Origin: Neodothiora populina
Taxonomy: Eukaryota
Assembly: GCF_041146345.1 (NCBI RefSeq)
Contig: NW_027191411.1
Coordinates: 992,001 to 1,056,000 of the forward strand
Length of the DNA: 64,000 nt
Direction: 5' to 3'
Made by a program: the position numbers and the translations under genes. The notes beneath the pieces were generated by a model. That model searched no databases, was not told where the DNA came from, and worked only from the letters and a program-made list of their open reading frames with translations. Below are positions 12,701 through 62,897 of this stretch, one piece after another (position 1 is the first letter of the stretch; each line of letters starts with the position of its first letter).

Positions 12701-14222
12701 CATCCCTTTTGTTCCACGCTCGCGGTTCCTATCATCAAGAAAGGAAATCCACACTGTTGTTCGGTGAACGGAGGATCCTTTCGAGGTGCATAGAAGGCTT
12801 GCGTTCACGGGAACCTCTGTGCTGGCAGCCAAATTGGGCCGTAAGGCTCCTTCCGTATTCGCCATTCGTGGAAGCACATGCTGGGCTGCATGCACCATCC
12901 TTCAGCTAAACTCTGCCAGATTCATGGTGAAATACCAAGTCGGACACCAGCCTGTATGGAAGTGGGGATTGGTGCGAATGCATGTTCGCATAGCCACTGC
13001 AGATATTCTCGCACTTTCATAGCATGCGACTTGCCGTGCACGCGACAATGATGTACGTCCAGGATAACGCTACATCACACTCCTTGTATAATTACGGAAG
13101 TCAAATGCGATGCGGTATGAGCTTCCTCCAAAACAAATGCTCGTTCTCGTTACGAAAGTGGTGCGTTGCACACGGCGCACTGTGTTTGAAATAGAATTAT
13201 ACCGTCGCACAACATGTGGTGGTGTGGCACCGAGCCGTCGAGTCGGTAAGGCATGCCCATGTATCGAGGATGCTTTGTAGCAAAGCAAGAATGGTCATGG
13301 TTCACGAGTCAAATTTCTGTATGATGTGCTCACAGTACTGTATGCATCAAAGACAATGGCTAGGTATGGTCCGGGTAGTGACCAAGTACAGTACATCACA
13401 GTACAGTAGCAGCGCAGCAGGTGAATCAATCAATCAATTTAATTACAATTAGTTGGATTCCACGGGCTTCCAACTATAGCCGCGGCTGGGAACGGCATCC
13501 CAGCGTTATAGGTGGGGAGATTTGGTTGGGCGCAAATGTGCGAGAAGCCAACTGCTCATCTAGCATTCGTTGCCCCTCCCCATCCAGGCAGACCGACTTC
13601 CAAAACATTGTGCAACTTTTTTGCTTCGTCCTTCTTTGCGCAAGTTGAATCTTCGAGTAAGGATTCAAGAGAGGTCTTTGCGACTCATTTAAGTCTCGGC
13701 TCGCAAGGTGTGCACAGGCTCTATTCCGTCTGCTTCAGCCACCTACTTATCATTCCCTGGCGCTCTGGCCCCTTTTCTACGCGGTCTGAAGATCATTGGC
13801 TGATTCACAATACATTATACCGTGTACCAACCCCCCCCCCCAATAAACTCGAAAAATATCTACTACTGTTGCTTGCTCTTCCTCAGTCTTCTATCAAGGG
13901 CCATTGTTTGTTGGCTATTGCGTGTGACTGATTGACAACACCAATCAGGCTTATATTAACAACTCATTCGCCTTCGACTCTCGCGAGATCTTGCTGGTCT
14001 CGTCTCGGATGTTCCACGAGAGTGTCATTCATAACCAAATGTTCGCTGCAAAGAATCAGAGTCGCGCCTTCCCTACCTCTTTTCCACCGCTTCATCGCAA
14101 GAGTTCAACTTCAGACTCGCGCTGAGGCTTGCATCAAACCGAATTGGAAACGCGGAATTTCTATCATATAGTCTGTAGCTTTAAACCAGCTACAGACAAA
14201 TCAAGAAGAAGAATATCAAAAC

Positions 14223-15428
14223 ATGTATCACGCATCTTACTGTCCTCCGTCGTACCATTCGGCGTACGATAAACCTGGATACTACTCGCCTCGCTATTCT
14301 ATACATACAGCGACCCCTTCGCCACGCTCATCGCCTGACAAACATCAGCGACGGGCGACTCACGACTACGCGTATGCGACGCCGCGTCGCACTTCGACAA
14401 CCTCATATTCATATGCCGACTATGCCAGCCCAGGATATACAACGCAGCAGCGCAAGCCCGACTATGTAAGTGAACCTATTCCGTCTCGAGGCAAATCTCG
14501 ACGCTTTGAGGATGGTCGCGGCGGCGCAAAATCCAAGCGCAAGTCTGGCACTTATCAAACCTCGCGGACCACTTTCACCTATCCCGATGGTGATTACCAC
14601 GCCTTCGACTCCAGTGAAGAGTATCTTCCTCGTTATGAGGAGCGATACCCACGAACGACGCCGCCGCCTCCATATACACGCGACTCTCATCAGAGGCACC
14701 GGGACGTTAGAGCTGATTACTATTCCTATTGTGATCAGATCCCTTCCCAGACAAAGGCCGAAGACTATGCCACGCATCACACGTCGCGCCCCAGGCGGGC
14801 CTCATACACTGCCAAGCCTCAGACGACGACTCCGAGGCCACGAGCAAACACGGGTCACTCCAAGCCGCCACCCACGCCACCCAAGGCTACGGACGAAGAC
14901 AGACGCAAAGCCGGCATCCCAGCAGGCTTCAACTTGAAGAACTGGGATCCCACAGAAGAGCCAATCTTGCTTCTCGGTAGCGTCTTCGATGCCAACTCAC
15001 TCGGCAAATGGATATATGACTGGACTGTTGCCTGGTACGGTCCCAATACACCCATGTCGGAAATTGCAGGTGACTTGTGGCTCTTGCTCATCCAATTGGC
15101 CGGGAAGATCAAGCGAGCGGAGAGTGTTCTGCCTAAAATTCGCCACAAAGACGACCGCGAATTGATTGGAGACTACCTCGACAGCGGCGAGCGACTGTGG
15201 CAACGCTTCAACAAGCTCCTCAAGATCTGCGAGTCTTTCATGTTGAAAGCAGCATCTCGGGATAGCCGAACCGGCAAGCCATTGCAGATGGGCCAAAACA
15301 GCGGCTGCGAGTTCGTTGACACCATCTTCGGCCGCGATCGAGAACTCGAGAGGACGGAGAAGTTGATGGCCGGCATCCGACTCTGGAGCATGCGCTTCGA
15401 TGCCAACTGTGAAGAAGTCCTCCGATAG
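14223..15428 (+). CDS. Conserved Pezizomycotina protein of unknown function (family often mis-labelled 'vegetative cell wall protein gp1')
   Basis: Single-exon 401 aa ORF with a Y/S/P/R-rich disordered N-terminus and a conserved-looking C-terminal domain IPAGFNLKNWDPTEEPILLLGSVFDANSLGKWIYDWT...RLWSMRFDANCE. Confidence 0.8.
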   Translation: MYHASYCPPSYHSAYDKPGYYSPRYSIHTATPSPRSSPDKHQRRATHDYAYATPRRTSTTSYSYADYASPGYTTQQRKPDYVSEPIPSRGKSRRFEDGRGGAKSKRKSGTYQTSRTTFTYPDGDYHAFDSSEEYLPRYEERYPRTTPPPPYTRDSHQRHRDVRADYYSYCDQIPSQTKAEDYATHHTSRPRRASYTAKPQTTTPRPRANTGHSKPPPTPPKATDEDRRKAGIPAGFNLKNWDPTEEPILLLGSVFDANSLGKWIYDWTVAWYGPNTPMSEIAGDLWLLLIQLAGKIKRAESVLPKIRHKDDRELIGDYLDSGERLWQRFNKLLKICESFMLKAASRDSRTGKPLQMGQNSGCEFVDTIFGRDRELERTEKLMAGIRLWSMRFDANCEEVLR

Positions 15429-17928: not shown

Positions 17929-19401
17929 TCATCCGCACGTCTTCTTAAACGGTGAGGACGACGACGATGGCGAACCATCGTCTCGCTTTCTTTTACATGT
18001 GGACTGTTCCTTCGATGACTCTTTTTTCTGTTCCACTTGTTTCATGTCATTATCTTCCTCGTCACTCAATGTGTTGGCTTCAGGATCATGCAATGCATTG
18101 ACGATCTTTTCTACAGCCATATCATCGCCTTCCTCAGTTTCGGCCAACTTGGGGTCTATCCAGCCATCTGTATAGCTGCCTCCGAAATCGATGATCCAGA
18201 GATCATCGTTGCTGTCCACCAAAAAGTTGTCCGCCTTGCAGTCTCCAAAGATCAAGTCATGCTCGTGCAGTAGGTCGACTATGCGCTTGGACTCGGTGGC
18301 CCATCTGTCACGTTTCCTTTGCGGGACGTCTTCGTCGAGCATGTGTGTTAGAGGCGTTGGTGATGAGATGTCGGTCATCATGAAACCCATGATATCTGTA
18401 TTGCTCCCATCATGGCGGACCAGTCCGACAACTTGGGGTACGTGAAATTGCATATGCAGGCCCAATCTTTCGATTTGCTTCATAAGCTTAATCTCTCGTT
18501 TCGTGGCGTCTGGTTGCGTGTCATCGATGACCTTGAGGAAGTGTTCCTTGTCGCCAACCCTGACTCGTGATGGATGCAAAGGCACAAGCATGTCACTTTC
18601 ATCCAGCACAACTACCTCCGACGGATTGAACCAAGGTATGTCGAGGTTAGTGACATACTTCGGTAGCCGCAGTCTCGGAGTCATTTGCTGCATTCTGTCG
18701 CTCAGCTCTTCAGTCTCTTCGAGCTGTACGGCAACAAGCTCAGAGCCGCGTATTTTGAGCTCGTAGAAGTTTGTCTCGGGATCGTACCATTCAGCCAGTG
18801 TCAGTCCTGCATCGTGTTCTTTCATATTGGGTGCCAATGGCGAGAAGATATTTCCAAAAGGTGCAAGCATCCAGTTTTGTAATTCTCTCTCGGGCTCCTC
18901 CTCTTCTGCTGGATCATGTAGCTTGACTTTGACGACTGGCATTGTTGCTTCGGGCATGGACATATCCACTCCACTATCGCTGGCTGGGCTCGACTCGCGG
19001 CACTCTGGACATATCCATTCTCCTTTAGGGGCTTCCTTGAGTCCGACGCAGGAGAAGTGATACCACTCATACGGACAATCTTCCTTTTCACAAGCTATCA
19101 TCTTCTGGTCGTTCTCCGGTGAGCGACAGATGCACCAGACATCTTCATCTCTTTGTTTCTCATCCGCATGGGGCTTATTCCGTGCCGACAGCTCCTGCCC
19201 TTGTGAAGCTGCAACCAATTCGTTGTACTGCTGCTCAAGGTTTCTGCCCCTTTTGCTTTTGGAGCGCATATCGGCAGCATCTGCAATGATGTGACAGCGG
19301 GTATCATTGACCCGCACAGTCATGGCTGAGCCATTGTCCTCGTCTGTGAAGAAGTCGAGAACATGCACTATCGGCGTACTCATATGCCTTGTTGCCGGCA
19401 T
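17929..19401 (-). CDS. Atypical protein-kinase-like protein containing an ING-type PHD finger
   Basis: PHD C4HC3 WCICRSPENDQKMIACEKEDCPYEWYHFSCVGLKEAPKGEWICPEC (about 19137-19000). Kinase-like motifs HFLK, KREIKLM, FGDCKADNFL and IIDFGG. First in-frame ATG at 19401. Confidence 0.85.
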   Translation of the reverse strand: MPATRHMSTPIVHVLDFFTDEDNGSAMTVRVNDTRCHIIADAADMRSKSKRGRNLEQQYNELVAASQGQELSARNKPHADEKQRDEDVWCICRSPENDQKMIACEKEDCPYEWYHFSCVGLKEAPKGEWICPECRESSPASDSGVDMSMPEATMPVVKVKLHDPAEEEEPERELQNWMLAPFGNIFSPLAPNMKEHDAGLTLAEWYDPETNFYELKIRGSELVAVQLEETEELSDRMQQMTPRLRLPKYVTNLDIPWFNPSEVVVLDESDMLVPLHPSRVRVGDKEHFLKVIDDTQPDATKREIKLMKQIERLGLHMQFHVPQVVGLVRHDGSNTDIMGFMMTDISSPTPLTHMLDEDVPQRKRDRWATESKRIVDLLHEHDLIFGDCKADNFLVDSNDDLWIIDFGGSYTDGWIDPKLAETEEGDDMAVEKIVNALHDPEANTLSDEEDNDMKQVEQKKESSKEQSTCKRKRDDGSPSSSSSPFKKTCG

Positions 19402-21036
19402 TGTGTTCGATTGTCTAGTAAGAACTGGAGGCGAGAGATGTGGTGACAAGAGTCAAAGTCAACAATGTAAGAATTAACAGGGATAAACAAGCATAAGAAA
19501 AGAAAAGGTAGGAGACGGAGGCTCCATATACTCGACTCACGAAGAAGACGCGTGAACGGTCTGTCACAGGCGAGACAAAGCAAAAACCACTTACGATTCC
19601 TAATCCAGCCTCTACGACTATCCTACTGTACATCACTCAGCTAGAACTGAAGAGCATTCGGCTCGAGGATCGAGACCAACGGATCGTAAAGAGGGCAAGA
19701 TAAACTACATCATCACTTTTCGTATACAGTATAGGGTGAGGGATCAGCAGGGCAGGGTGACTTCGATCTTAGTGCCGCTGCGATCTGGGGGCATCTCATT
19801 ACCGTACGTGTGGATAAGTGAGATAGGCTTTCGGTCGGCGGGCCCACGAGTGAGATGCCGTCTAACGCTTTTTCTTTCATGACGTTGCTGAGAAACATCA
19901 ATGTCGCGTGGGTAAGTCTCGGATATGCTGTGTGTAGAGTCCGCGACTCTGAGGACATTGACTTGAGATTATGGGAGTCGAAAGGCTGGTAGATAATAGG
20001 ACAAGTTACAATACAGTAGCTGTCGATTTGAGATTGAAATTTAATTGTCTCGAGGCAATGGTAAGGTACCTAAGGTAAGGCAAGTGAGCCACGTTGGATG
20101 ACGTCGCTGGAGAATATTAGAATAACCCTGGCATTGGCCTTCTGCACCTCATACAATACCTTAACATGTCCTCTACTTAGTGCCGTATAACAACCTTATT
20201 GAGCCTATGACGCCCAGCCATGTCAAGAATAATGATTGTATGCTGTGGCCAATAGCGGCTGCTGTCATGTCGAATTTGTCTACATCTTCGTAGTAGCAAA
20301 GATATTGAAGTGCTTGCTATCACATCATCCTTCCAAAGTCATAGAATTTATGCTATCTTGAAAGTCATACGCAAAGATACGGAAGCGCAAGCCTGTTGAC
20401 CACCAAGATGTGCATCTGATGCACTATCTGCATATACAATATATCGACATGTGTTGCAGCACAATCTAATCAATAAGATAACATGTGGAGCTCGACGAAG
20501 CCCTCGGTCATCGAGCGCCTCACGTTGACAGATCCTAGCTGCTACGATCTTTTGAGGACAGAGGAGCCACATGCCATAGTATTCTCTTCACTGCCTCTTG
20601 TCCGTCAGTGCCACTTGTAACATAAGAGTCTCATACCATGAAGTGACTGGAAGTGTCCTCTGATATGCTCACATCGGAGCCGCAGTCGTCCTAACATTTG
20701 AACAGCTTGAACGAAGACATAACAACCAAAGCCCCCGGACATACTAGCCGTCAATGGCTTTGCCATGAGCGAGGTAATTTGTGTAAGGATACCTTTGCAA
20801 GCTGTGAACCTCGGCCGAATTATTCGCCTCTGATGCGGACCATAGCGAAGATGGTCGCAATGCTTTGACTGGCTACAAGTGACCAATCAAGAGCCCAATC
20901 TGCAAGACTTGTCACAGCCAGAGCATAGGTCGTCATTTCTAAAGAGGTCGTCGTGGATGAAAATCGTCAAATCGTATCGTCAAGAGGCCATCGGGCCGTC
21001 GTGAGCTAGAAGAAGTGGTTCATCCCTTTTCGCCAC

Positions 21037-21303: not shown

Positions 21304-21706
21304 TGGATGAATCAGCTTGTTTTGTGTCTATAGAGTGCTCAGTAGTTGACTTGGAGCTAGCGGCGCGCCAAGACATGAACGAAGTAGGACTCGTCGAGGT
21401 GCTTCTTGCGAAGACCCTAGTGGAGGATCGCAAGCTTCCGGTATACATTTTAATTATGGAAATGGTAAGAAACCATCAGAGTCAAGTCTACTTGATCTTG
21501 TAGTCAACGTGAAAATAAGGACTCACCATTGCCAAAGGTCGATTACCAGGTGAATACGTCACAAGCAGAGGGCAACGCGGGTCCACGTGATGGCTTGCGA
21601 TTAGTCTTGGCATTCATTGAACATGTTCTTGAGGACTAACTACGACTACCTTCTCTATCGACATCGCCAGCGACGACACGCTTTTCATCTATTCTAGCTA
21701 AGAAAA

Positions 21707-24142
21707 ATGCCTGTCGTCAAGGGAGGTGTGTGGTAAGTGACGGAGCGCAACTTCTACATCTCTTCGATCTGCTAATACCTCTTAGGACAAACATTGAGGA
21801 TGAGATTCTCAAGGCGGCCGTGTCCAAATATGGACTGAACCAATGGGCGCGCGTGTCCTCACTTTTGGCGCGCAAGACACCCAAACAGTGCAAAGCGCGC
21901 TGGTCAGAATGGCTGGATCCCGGCATCAGGAAGGTGGAATGGAGCAAAGACGAAGATGAGAAGCTGCTTCACTTGGCCAAGTTGATGCCAACGCAGTGGA
22001 GGACTATTGCGCCCATCGTCGGACGCACCGCTACCCAATGCCTGGAGCGGTATCAGAAGCTGCTTGACGATGCAGAGGCCAGAGAGAATGACGAGCTGGG
22101 TCTTGGTGGTCCTTCAGGCGGAGAGGCTGCGGCACCAAGCGCAGACGATGTTCGCAAATTGCGACCTGGCGAAATGGACCCGGACCCGGAAAGCAAACCC
22201 GCACGACCAGATACTATAGACATGGACGAGGATGAGAAGGAGATGCTGAGCGAAGCGCGCGCTCGTCTTGCAAACACTCAGGGAAAGAAGGCTAAGAGAA
22301 AGGCGAGAGAGCGACAACTTGAGGAGAGCAGAAGACTGGCTGTGCTGCAGAAGAGGAGAGAGCTGAAAAACGCGGGCATAAATATCAAGGTCGTCAGCAA
22401 GAAGAAGGGACAGATGGACTACAACGCCGATATCCCTTTCGAGAAGGCACCTGCGCCTGGATTCTACGACACGGTTGAGGAGGAGACGCGCAACGAAAAA
22501 CAACGAGAAGCCTTTGACCCGCGCAAACAGCAGCTTGCCAACAAACGCAAGGGCGATCAGGAAGATGACAGGGATGATAGCAAGAGGAGGAAGAACGACA
22601 AGAGTGGTACAGCTGCAGCATACGCCGCCGCTGCTAAGGCCGGTCAAGCCCAGCGTCTCAGGGAGGCGGAGCAGAGCAGCAGGCGCCGTGGTCTTGCGCT
22701 CCCCGCTCCTCAAGTTGGAGAGAGTGAATTGGAAGAAATCGTGAAGATGGGCATCGCTGGTGAACGAGCATCGCTTGCTGCCGGTGGCAGTGACAACGAG
22801 GCTACCAGAGGTCTTATCGGGAACTATTCTGAAATGGTTGGTAGCACACCCATCCGGACGCCAAGAGCACCACAGGAAGAGGACCGCATCGCGAATGAGA
22901 TTCGTAATGCACGTGCCAGAACCGAGACACAGTCAGCCTTACTTGGAGGAGACAACGCAGAGCTATACGAGGGTGCCTCTACGACCGGTTTTGGTGGAGT
23001 AGCACCTAGTAAGCAAAGTACAGCAACACCTAATCCATTGGCGACCCCCTTAAGAAATGGAATGGGTGCTACTCCGGCCCGGAGACCCGGAGCAACCCCT
23101 CTACGCACGCCGCGTGATAATTACGGCCTTAACCAAGAAAACGGCATGCAGCTTGTCGGGCAGACACCAAAGGACATCCGTCGTCACGAACAAGCCATCC
23201 GAGGGGACCTTCGAAGCAAGCTTTCATCTTTACCAAAGCCAAAGGAGTCAGAGTGGGAACTCGAGCTACCGGAGGAGCAAGAGGAGAAAGCCCCTCAGGC
23301 GGAAATGAGTGATGAGGATGCAGCTATCAGAGACCAGCGCCTTCGGGAGACACGAGATGCCGCTGCCAGGGCAGATCTGAAGCGACAATCTCAAGTGATA
23401 CAACGCGGCTTGCCTAGGCCAACCGTGGTTGATGTAGACGCTATGCTCAAAAACGCCGCTGTCTTGAAGGATTCAATCAAGCGGGACATTGGCAAACAAA
23501 TGGCTCTACTTATCGCGAATGACGCAAGGAAGTTCGGTGGCGCCAAGATCAAAGGCTCGCATCAACCTGTAGAGATGTACGAAGATGACGAGATGCGTCG
23601 TGTCCGTCTAGAGGTTGCTTTAGAGATGGGCAAGGACGAACATGGCAGAAAGATTTTGCAGGAACAGTTTGGTCAGGCATGGGACAAGGCACATGAGCAG
23701 ACGATACTCCCTGGTCTTGCAGGATATGCTGAGGATGAAATTGACGAGCATCAATTAATGACTGAAGCTTTTGACGTAAGTTTGCATGGATACATGTCAC
23801 AATCGGCACGCTGACTGACATCCGTTACAGACCATCCAGGACGGTATCATCTCGACTGCAGAGAAGGGCAATGCATTGGAAAAGAAGCTTGCGAAACATC
23901 ATGGTGGCTATCTGGCGCGTTCGGTAATGCTACGAAAGAAAATATCTGAGGCGGCTGACTTTATGGCACGTACGAGCATCGATGTTGAGACCGCCAGGAC
24001 AGCTCAGCAGGCTGAGGGTGTTGCCATTACTGATCGTCTAGAAAGACTAAGGGACGAAGTCAGTCTTGTCAGTAGGAGAGAGAGGGAGGCGCAGGAGGAA
24101 TATCGAGCAAGGAAATACGAGCTCGATGGTCTCAGTGCATGA
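21707..24142 (+). CDS. CEF1: Pre-mRNA splicing factor Cef1/Cdc5L; exons 21707-21732, 21786-23775, 23831-24142
   Basis: [36 protein letters not shown]yb repeats. Canonical introns 21733-21785 and 23776-23830. Confidence 0.97.
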
Positions 24143-39278: not shown

Positions 39279-41834
39279 ATGGAGACTCTGCCAGGCGTAC
39301 CCCCTGAGGAAACTCCGATCTACTTTTATGTTGGTCAACATGAAACGAAAAGAAATGTTCAAGTAACAAATTTGCTTGTCAGCCAGGCACAGGATGTTGG
39401 TGTAGGTATTCCCGTTCCTTGCGCTATGTATAACACTTATAGATTCTTAGTATGACATGATTACAAGACCCATCACTTCGTCCAGTTTTCAGAACAAAGT
39501 CCTTGCTGCGTTGGATTCCTACTTTGAGGCTTTGTCTAGCGCTGCCAAAGAGGAAGATGTTCCCTACCCACTTATCTCTCCTCTCACACCGGAGGACACC
39601 AATTTGCTTCCAGACGAGTACATCTCGTCCATGCTAGCAGTGACTAGCCCTTGGATTGATCTAGCCTCACCGGACCCTGTGATAGCTCATGTCTCTCGTC
39701 AAGTCTTCAACTTGGAAGTCGCTTATGCTGCTTTCTGTGGCGTCAACAACATGGTCATCGAAGGACCGAGGCTGCAAGGAAATGTTGCGATTCCTGTATA
39801 TGCCAGGTCTATCGTGCAAGCACTGAACGTTGGCCCCTACCTTAATCTTCAGATTCGTCTCCCAATGACGGCGAAGTCGAGTAAGGATGAGACCCAAAAT
39901 CCGCGTCACATGGCTAGCAGAATGCGTTCGCGCTATGCCGAAGCCGCCGATATTGCTTCGACAAGTAGTGATTCTCTTCGGTCTTGGGATGCTTGGGAGC
40001 TGATCCGGACTGTTTGCAAGTTCCACGGCAGGCTATCCGTAGGTAAGTTATTGCTCAATTTCTCCCCCTTGATTTCCTTTGCTCTAACGCGCTCTCTCAG
40101 CGTTGTCGATTCCTCAGAAGTTGCCGAGCATGGAAATCCAGTCCAGATGGTTCTCTGAGCCATTACGTCTCATCGAACTTCACGAGTCGACGTTCATGCG
40201 TAATGCGAAGGGCTTCCCAGTGCTTTCCAAGGCTATTCAGGCCCTGATAACTCGCTATACTCGTCTCAAAACCTCGCCTTGGATTCTCCTGAGCGATGTT
40301 GGCGCTATTCCGACGGATGATGAGCTCGATGCTGCAAATCCTGCCGAAGACGAGCTGCCTACCCCAGCTCAAGCTAGTTCTGCAAATCGAATGCCTAAAA
40401 GGCCAAAGCAGAAGGATCTCACTCCCCACCTAAGCTACATACGCCATTTGCAGAGATCGCAACCTCCCCGTCCTATCATCGACCGATTTGCTTCAGGATA
40501 CCAGGACTTCCTGCAGTCACCACTTCAGCCCCTGACCGATAACCTAGAGTCTATTACTTACGAGGTCTTTGAGAAGGATCCGGTGAAGTATGAATGGTAC
40601 GAGCGCGCCACTGCTGCTGCCCTCGTGGACCTCAAGAAGACTCTCAACAGAGACATTGTCGTCGCTGTTGTTGGTGCTGGACGTGGCCCTCTCATGACCA
40701 GGGCACTGAAGGCTAGTGCCAGTACAGGCATCTCTATCCTACCTTACGCAGTGGAAAAGAACCCGAACGCATACGTGCTACTACAGAACCGAAACGCCAC
40801 CGATCCACTCTGGGGAAAGCGTGTTCAGGTAGTCAAGACAGACATGCGCGCATGGGCCGGGCCTACGCTACCTTCTGGCGAAGTTGGCAAGGTCGACATT
40901 TTGATCTCTGAGCTCCTGGGCAGTTTCGCAGATAACGAGCTGAGTCCAGAATGCCTTGACGGCGTTCAACACGTGCTACATCCAGACCACGGAGTCAGCA
41001 TTCCCACGTCTTATACCGCACACTTCACGCCAATCGCATCACCAAAGATCTACTCGGATCTCTTGAGCCGCACCGGAGCTGGCGCAGAGGATAGATGGGA
41101 GCTTCCATATGTATCTATGCTACACCAGTTCGACAATCTCTGTCTTGCGTCTGCCGCAAAAGACTCCACGACTCCTTCAAGCAAGGACGACAAGGCAGCC
41201 ACAGAGCCTCTTCAACCCGACGTCCAACAAGCTTGGGAGTTCACCCACCCGATTCCTCAAGCCATTCTCGCCCAGTCGCAGCTCCGACGAGGCGGAAGCG
41301 CAGCGGCCGGGTTCGGAGGTGCAGTAGGCGGAGATGGCTGGAACGAGCACAACGCACGATTCAGCAAGTCGACATTCACGTGTACGAACCGCGGAGTCTG
41401 CCATGGCTTAGGCGGCTATTTCGAGACAGTGTTGTACGAGAGCAAAGCTCAGGGTGGCAAGAAGATCGAGCTGAGCACAAACCCCGTGACGATGGATCAG
41501 AAGAGCAAAGACATGATCAGTTGGTTTCCGATCTTCTTTCCTCTCAAGGTATGAATCAATCACCCCTCGTCTACCTCTCGCTTGCCCTTTATCCCTCCGT
41601 CCTTCTTACCCCCCAGAACCCCAACTACTGACCTCAACAACGTAGACACCAATGTACTTCCCCGACAAAGCCGAAGTAGAAGTAAGCATGTGGCGCCAAA
41701 CCGACGACCGAAAAGTATGGTATGAGTGGATCGTCGAAGTCTACGCCCGCGTCGGAGCAGGGGCAGAAACGACTCGACAGCGCGTCGCTGTGTCTGATCT
41801 GCACTCTAGTTGGAAAAATGGGTGTTTGATGTAG
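39279..41834 (+). CDS. PRMT5: Protein arginine N-methyltransferase 5 (Hsl7/Skb1); exons 39279-39401, 39451-40042, 40101-41548, 41646-41834
   Basis: QSPLQPLTDNLESITYEVFEKDPVKY, VVGAGRGPL, ISELLGSFADNELSPECL, MISWFPIFFPLK and KVWYEW motifs; canonical introns. Confidence 0.95.
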
Positions 41835-42400: not shown

Positions 42401-45400
42401 TCATGAATAATCATGCAACCCCTGCAGCACATGCCCCCACCCCAAATCCCTACTCCCGCCTCTCGCACCATGTCCAAACCCAGCACGACCAGTAGCATCA
42501 TCGCCGATGGCAATCTTATAATGCTCTCTAAGATACTCTCCGATGATATGCAACTCCTTTTCTCGCTTACGGGTTTCCCGCCTTTCGGACTCGCAATAGC
42601 TCTCGTAGATGTCGAGGTTCTCGTCCAGAGGGCGCGAGGTGTCGATTGGGAAGAAGCGGCTGGACGAGAGAAGATGGGCGGATGGGGCGAAGTGGGCGCC
42701 GATGTGGTGCGGGATGCTGAGGTGGCCTGATGCTGTTAGGCCGGTTGAAGTTGCTGCTGCTTGGATTGGGTTCTTGAATGAGTTGGATGAGGCTGGGTCG
42801 GTAGGTGCGTCAGACATTGGACTCGAGGGCTGGGCTGATGTGTCGAAGGAAGGATGATCGCCGAGGACTGCACGGACAGGAGCGGCGGCGAATGCCTTGA
42901 GACGATTGTTTTCGCGTTGGAGTCTCTGCTCGGTACGAGACGACTCGTCGAGAGCCGTGTTTGCGTATTGCAGTCTCGAGAGGAGAGTCTCATTTGTGAC
43001 GGTCAGATGGTTGATCTTAGCGCCATTGAGATCGCTAAGTTCCTGCGATTTGGCTTGCTCTTGGAAGTCTGTATCATTGGTCTTGTCTTCTCCAAGTTGG
43101 CTTTTGTAGGATGAGATCTTCCTGGTTTGTAAGTCAAGAGCCTGTTGTAGCTGAGCCAATTTCTCCAAGGCCTCGAGATGTTGACTTTCGAGTCTTGCTC
43201 GTCCAGCTGTAGCTACCGCCAGTTCTTCCTTGAGATGTTGTTCGTTCTGGACCTTTGGTGAAGCAGGCTCGTCATCTTCGTCATCCTCGACTGAAGCTTT
43301 GACCTTCCCAAGTTCCTCGCGCAGTCGCTGGATGTCTCTGGTGTACTTATGAACAATCTTCTCATGCTGGATTTTCTGCACTTCTGCAGTGCGAGTGATT
43401 TCGAGGTTGTGCCGATGACTGTCTCGATTCTTCTGGTCCGCATCCTTAAGTTGAGCCTGATATTTTTCTTCCAATTGAGGAATCTGAGAGTTCAGGTTTG
43501 CAATAGTGGTAGCACAATCCTCGTGACCATGTTTGAAGATCTCGAACTTCCCTTCGATCTCGAGCACCTCTCGACGGTACTTGTCTGCGAGTTCTGTCTT
43601 CTTCTGAGCTCTGCCTCGGAGGGCTTCAGTGTCACGCTCGTGTTCTTCGTCCTGGAAGTGCAGTTGCTTTTCGCGCAACTTGACTTTCTCCTTGTATGCT
43701 TCCACCTCTTGACGAAGGTCCTCTATCTGTTGGTCGTCTAGACCCGAATCTGTAGTTGGATCTGTGGTTGTTTTGGTCGTGGGAGAGGAGGGCGTGCTCT
43801 TTTGCGCCAGGAGCTCTTCGATAGTCTTTTCATGGTCTTCCATCTGCTGCCGAAGAGCGTCGTTCTCTTGCTTGAAAGCCTCATTCTTTTGATAAAGCTC
43901 ATCAACGACCCTTTGGATTTCATCGAGTTTGCTGACTTGCGCTTGAACCTGCTCACGCAGATCATCTATATCAGCTGATTGAGCTCCAGACTCGCTTGTG
44001 GCCCGTAGTTCTTCCATGTCTAGGTCTCTAGCAACCAGTTCACTTCTGAGCCGTTCTACCTGATCTTGAAGGCTACGAATGTCGTCCCATTCTGCTCGCA
44101 TGTCTTCATATGCATCGAGATAGTTTCGTAGATTCGCTGGCTCGGCATCGTCATCCATGTACCCAGGGATGGTGAGATAAGCGTTGAGGAGATCGAGGTT
44201 GAAGATTTCACCAGAGAATAGGAGCTCTCCGAAGAGACGACGGGGTTTGAAGCGGTACTTGGTCTCATGATCCGCCAGCCACTCAGCGATTTCGCTAGCA
44301 CTCTTATTGAGGACTAAGAGGTCCATGATCTTTTCTGCACCGAGAGCTGGTAAAGTCTTATTCTCATCGTTGATGCAATTGACGATTATCGCAGCAACGG
44401 CTTGTCGCTTTTCTTCCGGCCACTGCACACTATTACCGTAGGCAGAAACTGCCAACGAGAAGGTCTGCTGGGCTCTCAGTTCTTTGTTGACCTCTCTTTC
44501 ACGGAACAGATCTTCTTGATGGCTGACAAAGTGGTCTTGCAGCTCATCATAACGCTTTCGCCAGCCTTTGATAGCCCTTTGAAGCTGACTGATCTTATAG
44601 TCCGACTCTTGTAATAGTGCCTGATAAGATCCAAGATCAGTCTGGAGATTTGTGTTGTCCATCGTGAGCCTGGCCTCCCTTTTGTGGCATGCAGCAAGTT
44701 CGTCAATGTAGCGCTCGAGGACATCTACAACCTCTTCGCTCGACACGATTGGAGGTAAAGGTGTATCTCTACGACCCCTGCCTCTGCCAGAGGCTACTAC
44801 TTGTTCGAAGAGGGCTTTTCTGGCGCGTTCGAGTGAGTCTCTTGGAATGTCTTTCAGATGGGTGTAGGAGCGTTGCTTAAGTAGTCCTTTCTCCTTGTCT
44901 ACATCGTATTCGAGTCGCGAAGGAGAGACATGTTCGGTCGATCTCTCGGGACTCAGTGAGCTACTCTTCACTGGAACCGATGACTTGTTTCTCACCTGGG
45001 AGGTCAGGAGAGAGTGAGCTCTTACGTCTGGTCCATCTTCCAATAAAACGTCGGTCCCCACGATCGACGTCCTCGCGAGAATTGCACGCCTTGCAGCAGC
45101 AGGGCCTGGATCTGGTAACGCTGTCTCTTCGACCTCTTCATCGCTCGAACTACTCCATGCTGATATTGTTGAGCCTGTTGGGCTAGGTGGACGTTCCAAA
45201 GTGCTTTCAATTCCTTCCTGGCTCTGCGTGGTGTCTCTGTCAACATCGTTATTGTCTTCGTCAGACCTCCTGCCAAGTCGACTCGGTGGCCGAACGAATG
45301 AGTCTCTGCTCTCCTGACCATCTTCCTCATGCGAGATAGCATGATCGTCGTCTGCAACCGACTGTTCAATGAGCGAAGGATCACTTGCGGGAGTGGCGGG

Positions 45401-45478
45401 CTCAACAATTTGAGGCACACTGCTCTCGCAATCTTGAGCAGTGCCGCTCTGCTCATCAAGGTTGTCAATGTCGCTCAT
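42401..45478 (-). CDS. Large coiled-coil protein of unknown function (1025 aa)
   Basis: Uninterrupted ORF with an acidic/Ser-rich disordered N-terminus and extensive E/Q/K/L heptad regions. Confidence 0.8.
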   Translation of the reverse strand: MSDIDNLDEQSGTAQDCESSVPQIVEPATPASDPSLIEQSVADDDHAISHEEDGQESRDSFVRPPSRLGRRSDEDNNDVDRDTTQSQEGIESTLERPPSPTGSTISAWSSSSDEEVEETALPDPGPAAARRAILARTSIVGTDVLLEDGPDVRAHSLLTSQVRNKSSVPVKSSSLSPERSTEHVSPSRLEYDVDKEKGLLKQRSYTHLKDIPRDSLERARKALFEQVVASGRGRGRRDTPLPPIVSSEEVVDVLERYIDELAACHKREARLTMDNTNLQTDLGSYQALLQESDYKISQLQRAIKGWRKRYDELQDHFVSHQEDLFREREVNKELRAQQTFSLAVSAYGNSVQWPEEKRQAVAAIIVNCINDENKTLPALGAEKIMDLLVLNKSASEIAEWLADHETKYRFKPRRLFGELLFSGEIFNLDLLNAYLTIPGYMDDDAEPANLRNYLDAYEDMRAEWDDIRSLQDQVERLRSELVARDLDMEELRATSESGAQSADIDDLREQVQAQVSKLDEIQRVVDELYQKNEAFKQENDALRQQMEDHEKTIEELLAQKSTPSSPTTKTTTDPTTDSGLDDQQIEDLRQEVEAYKEKVKLREKQLHFQDEEHERDTEALRGRAQKKTELADKYRREVLEIEGKFEIFKHGHEDCATTIANLNSQIPQLEEKYQAQLKDADQKNRDSHRHNLEITRTAEVQKIQHEKIVHKYTRDIQRLREELGKVKASVEDDEDDEPASPKVQNEQHLKEELAVATAGRARLESQHLEALEKLAQLQQALDLQTRKISSYKSQLGEDKTNDTDFQEQAKSQELSDLNGAKINHLTVTNETLLSRLQYANTALDESSRTEQRLQRENNRLKAFAAAPVRAVLGDHPSFDTSAQPSSPMSDAPTDPASSNSFKNPIQAAATSTGLTASGHLSIPHHIGAHFAPSAHLLSSSRFFPIDTSRPLDENLDIYESYCESERRETRKREKELHIIGEYLREHYKIAIGDDATGRAGFGHGARGGSRDLGWGHVLQGLHDYS

Positions 45479-46423
45479 GTCCGGCTACTGTCAATCAAAT
45501 GTATGCGGTGTGAAAAGGAAATAACGTAACAAGGCCTGCCTTTAGTTGATTCACAAGTTTCAAGCGATCGACTGGGAAAATTACGCGATTGGCAAGAGGG
45601 ATATTATTGACGGTGAGAGTGAAATGTGAGATGTAAAATTATCATGATAATAGTAGGAAAAAAGGCGTGGGTGTAATACTACTTGGACTCGCGTACAATT
45701 CCTTTGACATGGCATCGAGTGCAATCTCTTTCGAGTACCATCTTTTGCATTAGGAAGTTCACTCGAATTGCAACGAGTGGCGTCCTTTGTGTCCATTATC
45801 TCATCGGTGCAACAAAGAATGGATGAAATGTAGCCTATCGAAGCTGGAGCGCAAGAAGGCTGGCATAGCATATTCTTTGTCGATATGACCGAGGACAGAT
45901 ACTTCAAAGATAGCTGGGAGTCGATTAGAATGGGACTTACATCTTGAACTCAGTTGAGGTCAATAGCGATGCTGCAAGTCTAAAGGTCAATATTCGCAAG
46001 ATGGACACTTCGGAGGGACGAAGCAACGTTGATGTGTTGACTACAGTAGCTGTTCTTCATCTACGAGAATTCAACAAAATACAAGATGTTCAGAGATTAG
46101 AGTGTTGAGCTGTCCCAGTGAAGGGGAATCTCATAGCACCTTGTGGTATCTGTTGACCAAGAGTGAGCAGAGGTCAGCTATCTGTGAAGGGGAGTGAGTG
46201 CCTCCACTTCATAGGACTAAGGTCGGCCGGAAATGTGCTAGTGAGTCTTGGCGTTTTTCGTGTTTCTTTGTCCAGGCAGCAAGGCAGCGATGCATGAGGT
46301 CTGATCTCACGTTCCACTTAATTACTTACTTTACTAAAGCAGCCTATTGATTTCAATCATAGTCTACTGGTGGGGACAAAGAAAGTCACGGCCTCAATCT
46401 CATTTTCGAACGAGCATGGCATT

Positions 46424-48103
46424 CTACGACACCTGCACTGTTCCTGCCTGACCATCTCCCTCTAAGCTCTCAATATCTTGCCATACTTGTCTCTCCCAAT
46501 CATCGTACATTGCACATCTGTCTTTCGAAAGCCAGTCGATCGCATCTTGGAACATCGTTCCTAAGCCGCTCCTTAGACCAGCTTCACCCAGTACGCCATC
46601 ATCTAAGGTCCCATCTTGCGCAACAGGTCGCGGTGTATGCTTCTCCTTCCTTCTCAGTGGGGTCTTCGCTGGTCTACCTCGCTTCTTGGGCGTCTGTATT
46701 TGAACTTCGTCGCTGTCGTCCCTGTCGTGGTCGTCATTGCCTACCTCCACCACATCAGCCGTGCCGCTAACGTCCAGTATGCCAGTCGCCTGCGCAGGGT
46801 CTGAGATCTCGTCCCTGCCATCGTCTCGCATCTCGACATCGTTATCGGCAGACGAGATCGTGGTGGAAACGTCTTGCCGTCTCTGTGCTTCTGTTTGAAC
46901 GTCCAAAGCCCACTGTAGTTCCAGCCAACCTTCTGTGTGTGCAGCTTTTAAGAATGTTGCGATGTTGCGTCTAGTGCTCTCGTCATTACTACGGTTTCCA
47001 TCGAGCCCTGTGATTCTAGAGATGGCAAGGTCTCGGGCTTCATTGTACTGAGCCCCGCTCACTGCCGCCCTTCTCAGGGTGAAAATGGTGTATAAGCCCA
47101 AAGCAATAAGGAGAGGCGGCAGTGTTGTAGTCGTGATGGCGCCATTTGTAGGATCTTCCTCAACGACAGGCTGTGCTCGAGTAAATAACCCTGTGCGTCT
47201 GCGTTCTCTCCCCCGACCTATATCTTCGTCTTCGAAGTTCTCCTCAGCCCGGGTTTCTACAGATTCAGCAGACTGTCTCATGCGTTTGCGGGTCATGGAT
47301 GGCGAGCTGTCTGCCTCTGGACCGGGAGCTGTCGGGCTCCACCCTCGCAAAGCCAAGACAGCAGCACAACCGGATAGGATGTATGCTTCAGCACCCGTGA
47401 CGCCGAAAGCATCGCAGATAGCATGAGCCATGATTGCTGCTTGTGGCGGAAGATCATGTGTATTTTGTGCTTCGCTTGATGTCTCCGCATGCGCTGGCGT
47501 AGGAGTTCCAAGTTTTCTCGTCTCGTTTCGTGATGACCTCGTCGCCGATCGTGGGACTGAAGGAACCGTGTATTCTCCCACAGTCTTGGATGGTAATCTC
47601 GTGCTTCTCCTTCCGCCACTAGCCACACTTCCAGGAGTCGCAACGGCACTTCTCGGTGTCCTCTTACTCGCACTTCCACTGCCATTTTCGTTCCCGTCCC
47701 CCAGCCCTATATTCAGCGTCGTGGTTCTCCTCCTACCTCCAGAAGCAGACATGGTTTCTCCATGTGACCCATCCACATCCCTTAATCTAGATGCGCGCTT
47801 AGGCGTACTCATGCCCAGAGCACCATTGAGATATGAGTACAACTTTCCATAGACCCTCGGGGGAACGGGCGCTCCCTTGACGTTGACATCTCCCGAGTCG
47901 ATACCCAGACGCTGAGTCAGACGATCACAGGCGATATGACAAACGGCGAACGTGCGGGCGATCTCTTCTTCAGGTTTCAATGTCGCGGCGTGTGCTCGAG
48001 ACTGTGCGAGAAGACTTGTCGCTAGGTCTATCAAGGGCGTTGGCAGAGGATGCAGGGTTGGAAGTAGAGTGATTAATGCTTGTTCGACTGGCGAGGTCGG
48101 CAT
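46424..48103 (-). CDS. ORC6: Origin recognition complex subunit 6
   Basis: N-terminus EQALITLLPT..LIDLATSLLAQSR..LKPEEEIARTFAVCHIACDRL..PVPPRVYGKLYSYL and C-terminal GLGTMFQDAIDWLS, typical of Pezizomycotina Orc6. Confidence 0.85.
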   Translation of the reverse strand: MPTSPVEQALITLLPTLHPLPTPLIDLATSLLAQSRAHAATLKPEEEIARTFAVCHIACDRLTQRLGIDSGDVNVKGAPVPPRVYGKLYSYLNGALGMSTPKRASRLRDVDGSHGETMSASGGRRRTTTLNIGLGDGNENGSGSASKRTPRSAVATPGSVASGGRRSTRLPSKTVGEYTVPSVPRSATRSSRNETRKLGTPTPAHAETSSEAQNTHDLPPQAAIMAHAICDAFGVTGAEAYILSGCAAVLALRGWSPTAPGPEADSSPSMTRKRMRQSAESVETRAEENFEDEDIGRGRERRRTGLFTRAQPVVEEDPTNGAITTTTLPPLLIALGLYTIFTLRRAAVSGAQYNEARDLAISRITGLDGNRSNDESTRRNIATFLKAAHTEGWLELQWALDVQTEAQRRQDVSTTISSADNDVEMRDDGRDEISDPAQATGILDVSGTADVVEVGNDDHDRDDSDEVQIQTPKKRGRPAKTPLRRKEKHTPRPVAQDGTLDDGVLGEAGLRSGLGTMFQDAIDWLSKDRCAMYDDWERQVWQDIESLEGDGQAGTVQVS

Positions 48104-48237
48104 GATGTAAATTTATCATCAATCAAGCGCATGGGCCGTATCGGTTTAGTTGTGTTTGTTGGAAGTTAGGATGTGAATGGGTTGTAAATTGATGTAAGAC
48201 CGAACTATTTTGATTAATTCCACGTCGACCATGGAAG

Positions 48238-48639: not shown

Positions 48640-51028
<2,389 letters not shown>

Positions 51029-51578: not shown

Positions 51579-54065
51579 ATGGCGAACAAAATGCTTCTAG
51601 TTGTGCTCTGCATCGCGGTGGCGCTCGCACTGTTTGCCACACCTGCAGATGCGTTTGGAGCTGGAAACATCGCTTCCATCTCTAAAGTCGAAGGCCGCAA
51701 CTGGCGTCATGGAGATATCGAAGATATGCTCAAGACAGTTGAGTTTCTGAAGAAGCACAAAGTAAGCCACGATTGTATTCTCAAATGTATCATGTTGTCT
51801 TGCTGACATTAAGAAGTGGACATCGATGATGGTCAAGGTAAGAGAAACGAATAAGGGGGAAGTACAATATGAGCCCAACTGACACCTCCTTAGCGTGTTT
51901 ACTTTGGCAACTGGCTGCGTGACTACAGTCAAGCAGTCGATGTGGGCACACTCAAAGGCGTCCCTTCTAGCACCATCAGAATCCTTGTCTGGGTCCTGGC
52001 CTTCATGTCATTTGGCTATGCCACTGGCGAGTTCGAGGTTACAGAGGAGCGCCTCGGGGTTTACCGTCCAGAGGAGCATATCGACAACCCCAAAGATTAT
52101 GCCGATAACCAGGACGCCCGTCACTTCGACCAGAGGCTCCGTGGTCCTGTCGAGCAGATCGAGCTTGACATCGACCCTAGCACAGGTATGAAGAACTACA
52201 TTGCCAACGAGTCTGGTGGCTGGTCTACATCAGCTGGTTACATCAGGTACAGTTTTGCCCGTGCTATTCACTATGGCAGGATGTATACACACGGAGCCAA
52301 CAAGGGCCGCGAGGAAGATCTTTGCGAGGCTTTGCGCTGCCTTGGTCAGGGTCTGCATTGTCTCGAGGACTTCGGTGCTCACACCAATTACACTGAGCTA
52401 GCTTTGCGAGAGCTTGGTCACAACAACGTATTTCCGCACGTTGGCACAGACACCATGATCAATCTTCATGGAAAGCATGTGTATCCTCTTGTCACGGGAA
52501 CCTTCGGTGGCGTCGACTTCTTGCATTCGGTCCTCGGTGAAGCCACCGATCACGTCACACAGAGTGAGGTCGACGAGATGCAGACCGCCCTCACTGATGC
52601 AAGCGCTTCGGGAAAGCGTGGAGGTAGAGATGGTGGTGAGCTCTCAGCATTGACCGGTCTACTGGACAAGATTCCTGGCACAGGCAGTCTTATCCAGGAA
52701 GCCATCAGCCTGCAGTCAGCATCAGATCAGCAAGCCTCACAGAACTCTGGTTTCAGCGGCTCCCGTGGCTTCGATGACCAGTCTGACTACAATCAAGATC
52801 GTGGGATAAATCCTGCTTCAATGGCCGGTACTGATCCGCAAGTCGTTATCGCAAAGATCTACCCTATCCTAGAGTTCCGAGATAAGGTTGTCCGTTCGAT
52901 CAACGGTATCATCTCAAAGATTCCAGGCTTGGAGGACTTCATCGAGAAGATCACTGAGAAAGTCACCATGTTCGTCATGGGTCTGCTAGCACCTTATATC
53001 ACTCCTCTCATAGCCGCTGCGTCTGAACAACTCAAGCAGGGAAGTTATGCCGTCGTCGATTCGAGCGGTAAGCATCAGTACGAGGTCTGGACTAATCAAC
53101 AGTGTTCCGACCCCACTCATTCTCTGCTTTCGAAGGATCACTTTTCCAACATTCTGAACGAGCCCGCTGGCGAAGTAGCTGTCGCCATTGTCCAGTACGT
53201 CGCTCCTCGTGTCATCTACGCATGGGACCATCCCGACGTGAACGAGCAGCAGATTCTGGATGATGTGATTCGTGTCTTCCATCACCCTGCAGCCCGAGAC
53301 CGCAACTGCGAGATACACAACAACATGTTCCGTGTTGTCGAGAAGTGGTCTCACAACTACCGCGGAAACTTGGACGAAGTCCTTAGTTCAGAGAGTGTCA
53401 GAGCCGGACGTAACCACACCGGTGGTGTCAACCCTCACCTTGGTGGTGGACATGCACACAGTGGGGCTATCAACGTGTCAAACTTCCCTGGTCTAGGAGG
53501 TGGACAGCAACAACAGCAAGGCGGATGGGGTCAGAGAAACGATCCTGACTCTTCGGCGGGAAACCACTCCTCGACCCCACAGCATAGCCACTCTGCGTAC
53601 AACGCGCCGGAGGAGACATTCCAGCAACCCCAACACAGCTCGTCTTTCGGTCAGCAAGAGTATAGCCACAAGTACGAGCAGAAGTACTCGCAGCAACAGC
53701 CACCTCCCCAAGCACCAGCAGGCTTTGCGCACAGTGATCCTTACGCATATCCAAGTGCATACCAGCAGGGCTACGAAGTCGGCTACCAAGGGCCGCCACA
53801 GGGACAGTACGGTCAGCCAACACCGCCTCCCCAGCAGTTCGGTTGGGGTGGACAGCCACCTCCAGGTCCTCCACCTGAGCAGCAATGGGGTCAACCGCCT
53901 CCCCAACAAAGCTGGGGAGGACCTCCTCCGCAGCAAGGCTGGGAGGGCCAGCAGCAGAGGTTCGATGAATATGGGCAACCAATCCCACAACAACAACACC
54001 ACCATCATCATCACGATCATCAAGGAGGTGGTGGCGGCGGTTATCCGGGTGCTGGGTATCAATGA
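51579..54065 (+). CDS. het-c: HET-C family protein (signal peptide, Het-C domain, Q/G/P-rich tail); exons 51579-51761, 51817-51837, 51894-54065
   Basis: AFGAGNIASISKVEGRNWRHGDIED, RVYFGNWLRDYSQAVDVG, YRPEEHIDNPKDY, GLHCLEDFGAHTNY and PTHSLLSKDHF. Confidence 0.92.
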
Positions 54066-59795: not shown

Positions 59796-59845
59796 AGTTC
59801 CATCGGCTGTGAACAAGAAAGCACGAAATCAAGAACTCAACAAAG

Positions 59846-62800: not shown

Positions 62801-62897
62801 TGACGGTCTAGTGCATGCGTCTTGGGTGCTCGGCCGCAGCGTCACGCCCGCGCTGGTGCAGAAGCGACGGGAAGCGGCGCTGAAGGCCCTCGATTGA
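59846..62897 (+). CDS. TBC-domain Rab GTPase-activating protein; exons 59846-61011, 61070-62897
   Basis: DNYGF, GIPMKLRAKIW, R-finger INADKTRT, Q-finger YIQGFN and RVWDV. Intron GTGAGT..CTAAC..TCAG 61012-61069. Confidence 0.88.

Follow-up and report, generated by a model that had tools for sequence, protein, structure and literature searches.

The 64,000-nucleotide stretch of the Neodothiora populina genome analysed here (NCBI RefSeq assembly GCF_041146345.1, contig NW_027191411.1, positions 992,001 to 1,056,000; hereafter the window) carries on its minus strand, at 17929..19401, a gene for a 490-residue protein, P0001, in which an ING-type PHD finger and a protein-kinase-like core are joined in one polypeptide. 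P0001 is probably a nuclear, PHD-tethered, non-RD Ser/Thr-type kinase that is delivered to chromatin methylated at lysine 4 of histone H3 (H3K4). Beyond the conservation of individual residues, the main support for this reading comes from the repeated pairing of the same catalytic core with fingers whose nearest solved relatives are H3K4-methyl readers, whatever the class or the position of the finger. Enzymes fused to histone readers, such as demethylases, methyltransferases, and acetyltransferase subunits, are central to chromatin signaling. We know of no described eukaryotic protein kinase (ePK)-like kinase that is hard-wired to a PHD finger of the type that reads trimethylated H3K4 (H3K4me3).

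The gene lies in a single open frame (17929..19449, the minus strand applying to all features of the gene), in which the ATG at 19401 opens a complete coding sequence of 490 codons followed by a TGA stop, as judged from the listing of open reading frames (ORFs), the translation, a collinear homologue match, and the conserved start. This ATG is taken as the correct start because conservation of M1 and of the N-terminal motif at residues 8-45 reaches 90% or more among the 79 aligned homologues. The motif itself (19267..19380) is a conserved, family-wide element of three strands, modeled with a predicted local distance difference test score (pLDDT) of 95-97. As residues 1-436 of the homologue P0006 align with window positions 19401-17974 as one tblastn high-scoring segment pair, the gene needs no intron.

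The PHD finger (W89 and C90-C134; 19000..19137) has the complete set of C4HC3 ligands. The Pfam profile PF00628 matches residues 90-134 (window 19134-19000) over its full length (positions 1-47) with a score of 29.8 bits (cut-off 24; E 6.3e-7), and the codon for W89 occupies 19137-19135. All of the top 19 sequence matches of this finger in the PDB are ING, Yng, Png2, or Pho23 fingers (E 2e-15 to 1e-9), headed by Yng1 (2.3e-15, 59.8 bits) and ING3 (3.7e-15, 59.1 bits) and continuing with ING1, ING4, Yng2, Png2, and Pho23. W89, M101, and W113 align on the Tyr, Met, and Trp of Yng1 and ING3, which are taken, from the structures of ING2 and Yng1, to be the residues of the H3K4me3 cage, and E105 and E112 make up the acidic pair. 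The finger therefore shares with those of Yng1, Yng2, Pho23, and ING1-5 the ING spacing of its ligands, the aromatic, Met, and Trp cage-equivalents, and the acidic residues. In contrast to those proteins, P0001 has its PHD at residues 90-134 of 490 and not at the extreme C-terminus, and its finger is joined to a kinase, whereas ING fingers occur in subunits of histone acetyltransferase or deacetylase complexes. Moreover, no ING N-terminal domain was found in P0001 with Pfam at E up to 1. Judged by sequence, the finger belongs with the ING-type PHDs, but because that domain is absent, P0001 is a protein with an ING-like finger and not a member of the ING family.

Comparison of P0001 with its four nearest relatives (P0002-P0005, 53-63% identical overall) indicates that the finger is maintained. 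Identity within this clade is 53-76% in the PHD and 61-68% in the kinase core, but 11-36% in the flanking linkers, so the PHD, with its core-like conservation, is under purifying selection. In the AlphaFold2 model, which was built from the 79-sequence alignment (mean pLDDT 84.8, predicted template modeling score 0.74, core mostly above 90), low-confidence linkers border the finger on both sides (residues 81-87 and 139-154), and the PHD would thus behave as a tethered module.

The kinase-like core with its N-lobe extension covers residues 166-441 (18079..18906), as delimited by Pfam, the alignment, the model, and the fold searches, and the kinase fold proper extends over approximately residues 250-460. 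The β3 lysine K290 stands in HFLK (18532..18534), the αC glutamate E303 in KREIKL, the catalytic loop reads D387-C-K389-A-D-N392 (18226..18243) with HRD changed to FGD, which makes the core non-RD, and DFGG follows at residues 405-408 (18178..18189), succeeded by a conserved S-Y-T411-x-G-W. All 79 aligned members share K290, E303, D387, K389, N392, D405, G407, G408, and T411 without exception, and the GDxKxxN and DFGG motifs are also kept in more distant paralogues. The S-Y-T-x-G-W segment directly after DFGG (residues 409-414; 18160-18177, minus strand), in which T411 and G413 are invariant and S409, Y410, and W414 are at least 90% conserved, amounts to an ‘activation loop’ of very small length that offers three potential phospho-acceptors.

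A Foldseek search of the PDB with the model gave at least 500 matches, and the 50 listed are all kinases or pseudokinases, including LIMK1, RIPK1, and ITK (E ~1e-5, many with a probability of 1.00). With VIA-align, which is independent of Foldseek, the best match was IRAK1 (Z 12.1, 199 residues, root-mean-square deviation 4.0), followed by a flat list at Z 10.7-11.7 that includes ScRIPK, MKK7, Csk, and Rad53 (Z 11.5-11.7) as well as IRAK4 and CLK2 and involves model residues ~250-460. Placement of the core in one kinase group was considered and rejected, as both searches returned flat lists of unrelated ePK families. With the ePK superfamily P0001 shares the bilobal fold and the invariant β3 Lys, αC Glu, DxKxxN, and DFG, but it differs in the replacement of HRD by (F/W)GD, in the missing GxGxxG and APE/P+1 elements, in a Pkinase score below the cut-off, and in a large conserved N-terminal extension (residues 8-75 and 169-250). 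The core is therefore best called an atypical ePK-like kinase, having the kinase fold and the catalytic set but failing on the Gly-rich loop, the activation/APE segment, and the Pfam cut-off. This non-RD core is probably constitutively competent.

The short C-lobe, weak matches to Kdo, WaaY, and APH, and the name ‘Bud32’ given to some relatives in JGI recall the Bud32, RIO, and Kdo/WaaP kinases. Unlike Bud32, RIO, and Kdo kinases, the P0001 family has N-terminal modules and PHDs; Bud32, RIO, and Kdo/WaaP are not among the 50 best matches listed in either fold search, a result that excludes none of them. Bud32 and RIO kinases are also described as universal, whereas the named members of the P0001 family are all Pezizomycotina.

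The C-terminus of P0001 is a basic, bipartite tail resembling a nuclear localization signal, KRKR-x12-KK (residues 470-487; 17941..17994, from the translation and the alignment). KRKR occupies residues 470-473 and KK residues 486-487, with conservation of R471 and K486 at 90% or more in the family. In most relatives the segment that aligns with this tail is the linker preceding a C-terminal PHD. A second short motif, DSGVD (residues 142-146; 18964..18978), was located through the alignment and the model in the disordered linker behind the finger, where pLDDT stays below 50 over residues 139-154; even so, D142 is invariant in 79 of 79 sequences and S143 is kept in at least 90%. The sequence DSGVDMS of P0001 resembles the DSGxxS phosphodegron, and DSGVD may serve as a degron, for docking, or as a site of autophosphorylation.

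A preliminary description of this gene, made from the DNA sequence alone, had proposed a single intronless ORF with a complete C4HC3 finger at about 19137-19000, of ING type and with intact cage-equivalent positions, followed by a kinase-like fold containing HFLK, KREIKL, FGDCKADN, and DFGG and by a basic tail. Each of these points was recovered: the ORF by the listing, the translation, and the single P0006 match, the finger by a Pfam score above the cut-off with W89 in its place, its ING type by the ING-family fingers that head the PDB matches, the cage by the alignment of W89, M101, and W113 on those of Yng1 and ING3, the kinase motifs by their positions and the invariance of the catalytic residues, the fold by a confident model whose listed matches are kinases or pseudokinases, and the tail by the KRKR and KK elements. 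The idea of a chromatin-reading kinase that the description put forward is thereby strengthened. From these features we infer a mode of action in which the PHD would dock on the H3 tail, most likely at K4me3, the conserved basic tail would carry the protein into the nucleus, and the tethered non-RD Ser/Thr-type core, which has a short C-lobe and lacks a Gly-rich loop, would phosphorylate a target on or near promoter-proximal nucleosomes.

Proteins that join a histone reader to a phosphotransferase in one polypeptide have a conceptual precedent in BAZ1B/WSTF (a PHD plus a bromodomain, with atypical Tyr kinase activity on H2A.X), TAF1, and TRIM24/28. These proteins are not known to be related in sequence to the P0001 family, their kinase activity is attributed to non-ePK regions, and none of their PHDs is known as an ING-type reader of H3K4me3. 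In general character the P0001 family resembles FfkA-K of Aspergillus nidulans as described in PMC3591445, unclassified kinases specific to filamentous fungi with a patchy distribution and deletions without phenotype. The term ‘PHD’ occurs 0 times in the main text of the same kinome paper (PMC3591445).

The combination of finger and kinase is by no means confined to N. populina. In a word-indexed search, 271 relatives fell within an E-value limit of 1e-3; the best 120 of them were listed, and 91 of these contain a PHD pattern. With E-value limits of 1e-3, 1e-10, and 1e-30, an exhaustive search of representative sequences with the core only (residues 141-441) gave 1010, 552, and 66 clusters, respectively. 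In a FastTree phylogeny of 215 core sequences, P0001 falls in an orthogroup of 157 rows (support 100), of which 98 carry a PHD and 59 have none. By class, the fingers are C-terminal and ING-type in 75 rows, ING-type in the N-terminal linker in 5 rows, which are the window protein’s own clade, and non-ING in the N-terminal linker in 18 rows (16 BPTF/PHF2-type and 2 ASH1L/MLL5-type). A block of ~57 short and distant, full-length paralogue clusters (~330-370 residues) is wholly PHD-less and has the common motif GDAKxDN...DFGGxYTxGWVD. The preliminary description had portrayed the kinase-like family as usually lacking PHDs, which holds for the superfamily, where none of the ~57 distant clusters has one, but fails for the orthogroup to which P0001 itself belongs. 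There, the joining of PHD and kinase is common, indeed the majority state, and the further suggestion that the finger is an insertion is not upheld as a peculiarity of this gene. A PHD-only search (residues 78-140 of P0001; 6 candidates) returned P0001 and P0002 alone.

All named members of the orthogroup are Pezizomycotina. Those among the best 120 relatives include the Dothideomycetes Aureobasidium, Delphinella, Baudoinia, Zasmidium, Dothistroma, Fulvia, Cladosporium, Teratosphaeria, and Venturia, the Chaetothyriales Exophiala and Lithohypha, and the Xylariales Pestalotiopsis and Seiridium. As the family occurs in numerous Dothideomycetes that are plant-associated and extremotolerant, and also in Chaetothyriales and Xylariales, a role of the family in gene regulation, if true, would be broadly relevant to fungi. 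The labels ‘Bud32’ and ‘Yng2’ (‘chromatin modification-related protein Yng2’) that relatives bear in databases are misleading and look like automatic names. One relative so labeled, P0050 (604 residues, ‘yng2’), is assigned to Quercus suber, and since the other named members are all ascomycete fungi, it probably represents fungal contamination of the oak assembly. A different relative, P0068 (835 residues, Lithohypha guttulata), is annotated with a fused enoyl-reductase/alcohol dehydrogenase domain and may be a merged gene model.

Reader-enzyme fusions of this kind are widely represented in sequence databases, and the literature searches returned no functional work on them. Literature searches that included the locus tags of six named homologues, with subscription journals and supplements outside their scope, yielded no paper on the PHD-kinase family, which agrees with the earlier statement that no characterized example was known.

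What is unusual about the window gene is the place of its finger, which lies in the N-terminal linker and not, as in most relatives, at the C-terminus. In the 79-sequence alignment the PHD occupies the N-terminal linker in 13 sequences and the C-terminal tail in 45; it is missing from 21, and no sequence has both. The N-terminal slot is the linker between the N-terminal motif and DSGVD, and the C-terminal slot follows the basic tail. The C-terminal fingers are of the ING type, as exemplified by P0117, whose best matches are Yng1, Yng2, Png2, and ING4. In the N-terminal slot, the Aureobasidium group (P0026) and P0016 carry a finger of the BPTF/CFP1/PHF2/DIDO type (59.7 and 54.1 bits to BPTF, respectively), and P0063 carries one of the ASH1L/MLL5 type, with P0091 grouped there by a similar motif and the tree. 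Whatever their class, these fingers retain the cage-equivalent positions. These positions are the aromatic residue that precedes Cys1, the Met located three residues ahead of Cys3, and the Trp that precedes the His ligand; the Met, the Trp, and an acidic residue after Cys3 are each present in 101 of 101 family PHDs. The aromatic residue is present in 96 of 101, namely in 76 of the 78 ING-type fingers at the C-terminus, 4 of the 5 ING-type fingers in the N-terminal linker, and 16 of the 18 other N-terminal fingers.

A quick IQ-TREE analysis (LG+C20) of 87 cores, rooted on the short paralogues, places PHD-less lineages at the base of the orthogroup, followed by a 69-row clade with a support of 92 in the Shimodaira-Hasegawa-like approximate likelihood ratio test. 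This clade splits in three: a C-terminal-ING clade, the window clade (99), and the remaining 58 rows, in both halves of which C-terminal ING forms occur. The window clade comprises the five N-terminal-ING rows and P0023, an N-terminally short gene model from Delphinella; the rows with BPTF-type fingers group together in a clade (94), as do those with ASH1L-type fingers (98). Because C-terminal ING forms are found on two of the three basal branches of the PHD-bearing clade, the PHD very likely predates the window clade. With moderate support, and although some PHD-less rows may be truncated predictions, parsimony on this rooting suggests that the PHD-bearing clade started out with an ING finger at the C-terminus, which on three occasions gave way to one located in the N-terminal linker. 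The N-terminal placement in the window protein accordingly looks derived. The PHD segment of the window protein scores 50-67 bits against the C-terminal PHDs of the family and 59-60 bits against the PDB sequences of Yng1 and ING3, so it is equidistant from both, and the bit scores favor neither a relocation within the gene nor a fresh capture from an ING gene. A tblastn search with five homologues (E up to 10) detected no second PHD and no PHD relic past the stop codon in the 64 kb window.

The family offers a natural experiment, in which one catalytic core occurs with three PHD classes, in two positions, and also without a finger, and these variants would permit a direct test of whether H3K4 methylation can recruit a phosphorylation activity. 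A bolder reading, which we advance tentatively and hold with less than even confidence, is that a single orthogroup, so far known only from Pezizomycotina, was coupled to H3K4-methyl-reader PHDs several separate times, in the form of C-terminal ING, N-terminal-linker ING, BPTF/PHF2-type, and ASH1L/MLL5-type fingers. The family would then constitute an unrecognized ‘reader-writer’, depositing a phosphate mark next to H3K4me3, be it on the H3 tail itself or on machinery bound at promoters. The several separate couplings would point to strong selection to bring kinase activity to H3K4-methylated chromatin, and in the variant seen in the window protein the ancestral C-terminal finger would have been exchanged for one in the N-terminal linker, or shifted there.

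Several observations weigh against a kinase guided by H3K4 methylation and have to be set beside the evidence above. As to the finger, the first cage position is Trp in P0001 and Tyr in the ING proteins, and one member of the window clade, P0004, has Leu at this aromatic position. Loop 1 of the PHD has 11 residues compared with 10 in the C-terminal PHDs of the family, and owing to this additional residue the position equivalent to the ING Ser is ambiguous. As to the core, the Pfam Pkinase profile (PF00069) matches residues 291-409 with 30.3 bits, below its cut-off of 31.7, and the alignment covers only profile positions 36-145 of 263. APH (20.7 bits), Kdo (16.0 bits, cut-off 21.3), and WaaY (14 bits, cut-off 20.3) match weakly, which makes a small-molecule substrate possible. 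A Gly-rich loop (GxGxxG) was not found in the sequence at residues 264-289. The conserved core ends ~35 residues past DFGG, so the canonical elements for docking of peptide substrates (APE, P+1 loop, and αG) are missing, and as the fold searches favor no kinase family, they give no clue to the substrate. Finally, the 59 of 157 orthogroup rows without a PHD include a well-supported Xylariales clade, from which it follows that the kinase can work without the finger, although some of the PHD-less rows may be truncated gene models.

Some of these observations would fit an active kinase that is not guided by H3K4me3, either because its PHD binds unmodified H3, a non-histone partner, or nuclear phosphoinositides, whose binding has been reported for the ING2 PHD, or because its substrate is a small molecule or a lipid. 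We regard this as rather unlikely, yet as the most serious of the competing explanations. Apart from the weak APH, Kdo, and WaaY matches, the Trp and the longer loop 1 in the finger, and the missing canonical elements for docking of protein substrates, it draws on the neighboring clusters in the Atlas, which are unnamed, restricted to Ascomycota, and labeled RIO1, Kdo, or APH on a minority of their members. On the other hand, the nearest solved relatives of all three PHD classes are H3K4-methyl readers, the cage-equivalent Met and Trp are retained throughout the family PHDs, and the fold-search matches listed are protein kinases only. In addition, P0001 has a Lys at the second position after the Asp of DxKxxN, which is the Ser/Thr protein-kinase signature of Hanks and Hunter.

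It is improbable that P0001 is a reader-scaffold, in which the PHD reads chromatin and the kinase-like domain is a nucleotide-sensing or protein-binding module that performs no phosphotransfer. The lack of a visible Gly-rich loop, the truncated C-lobe, and the Pkinase score would suit such a pseudokinase, and pseudokinases (TYK2 JH2, JAK2 JH2, MLKL, ULK4, and PTK7) are among the top structural matches. However, pseudokinases normally lose at least one of the β3 Lys, the catalytic Asp, and the DFG Asp, whereas every one of the 79 aligned sequences keeps K290, E303, D387, K389, N392, and D405, which are also retained in distant paralogues.

Two further explanations are very unlikely. That the PHD is a lineage-private insertion into a PHD-less kinase, giving a unique architecture as the preliminary description had it, is scarcely credible, for although the ~57 distant paralogue clusters lack the finger and only five sequences have the N-terminal ING-type arrangement, 98 of 157 orthogroup rows carry a PHD, and of the three branches into which the PHD-bearing clade first divides in the rooted tree, two are occupied by C-terminal ING-type forms. 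It is just as hard to sustain that the gene is decaying or unexpressed and its ORF open by chance, given an open frame of 490 codons, the same full-length architecture in four relatives at 53-63% identity, and a conservation pattern that is specific to the domains.

The neighbors of the gene are ordinary core genes of filamentous ascomycetes, encoding Cef1/Cdc5, PRMT5, ORC6, a DEAH helicase, Het-C, a phenol hydroxylase, and a RabGAP. The gene for the pre-mRNA splicing factor Cef1/Cdc5 (21640-23814, plus strand; Myb repeats and Myb_Cef, E 1e-54) is divergent from the kinase gene and lies ~2.2 kb from its start. PRMT5 is encoded at 39451-41554 (plus strand) in two frames with one probable intron, ORC6 at 46424-48112 (minus strand), the DEAH-box helicase at 48771-50705 (minus strand), and Het-C at 51894-54065 (plus strand); PRMT5, ORC6, the helicase, and Het-C together mark a core chromosomal region of a filamentous ascomycete. 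Two long frames matched no Pfam family, one of 1027 residues at 42401-45484 (minus strand) at E up to 1e-5 and one of 418 residues at 14172-15428 (plus strand) at E up to 1e-3. The GC content rises locally to 0.60 at window positions 60001-62000, compared with ~0.50 elsewhere, and this GC-rich part overlaps two long frames that also overlap each other, one at 59813-61015 and one at 60639-62897, which encodes the RabGAP-TBC protein.

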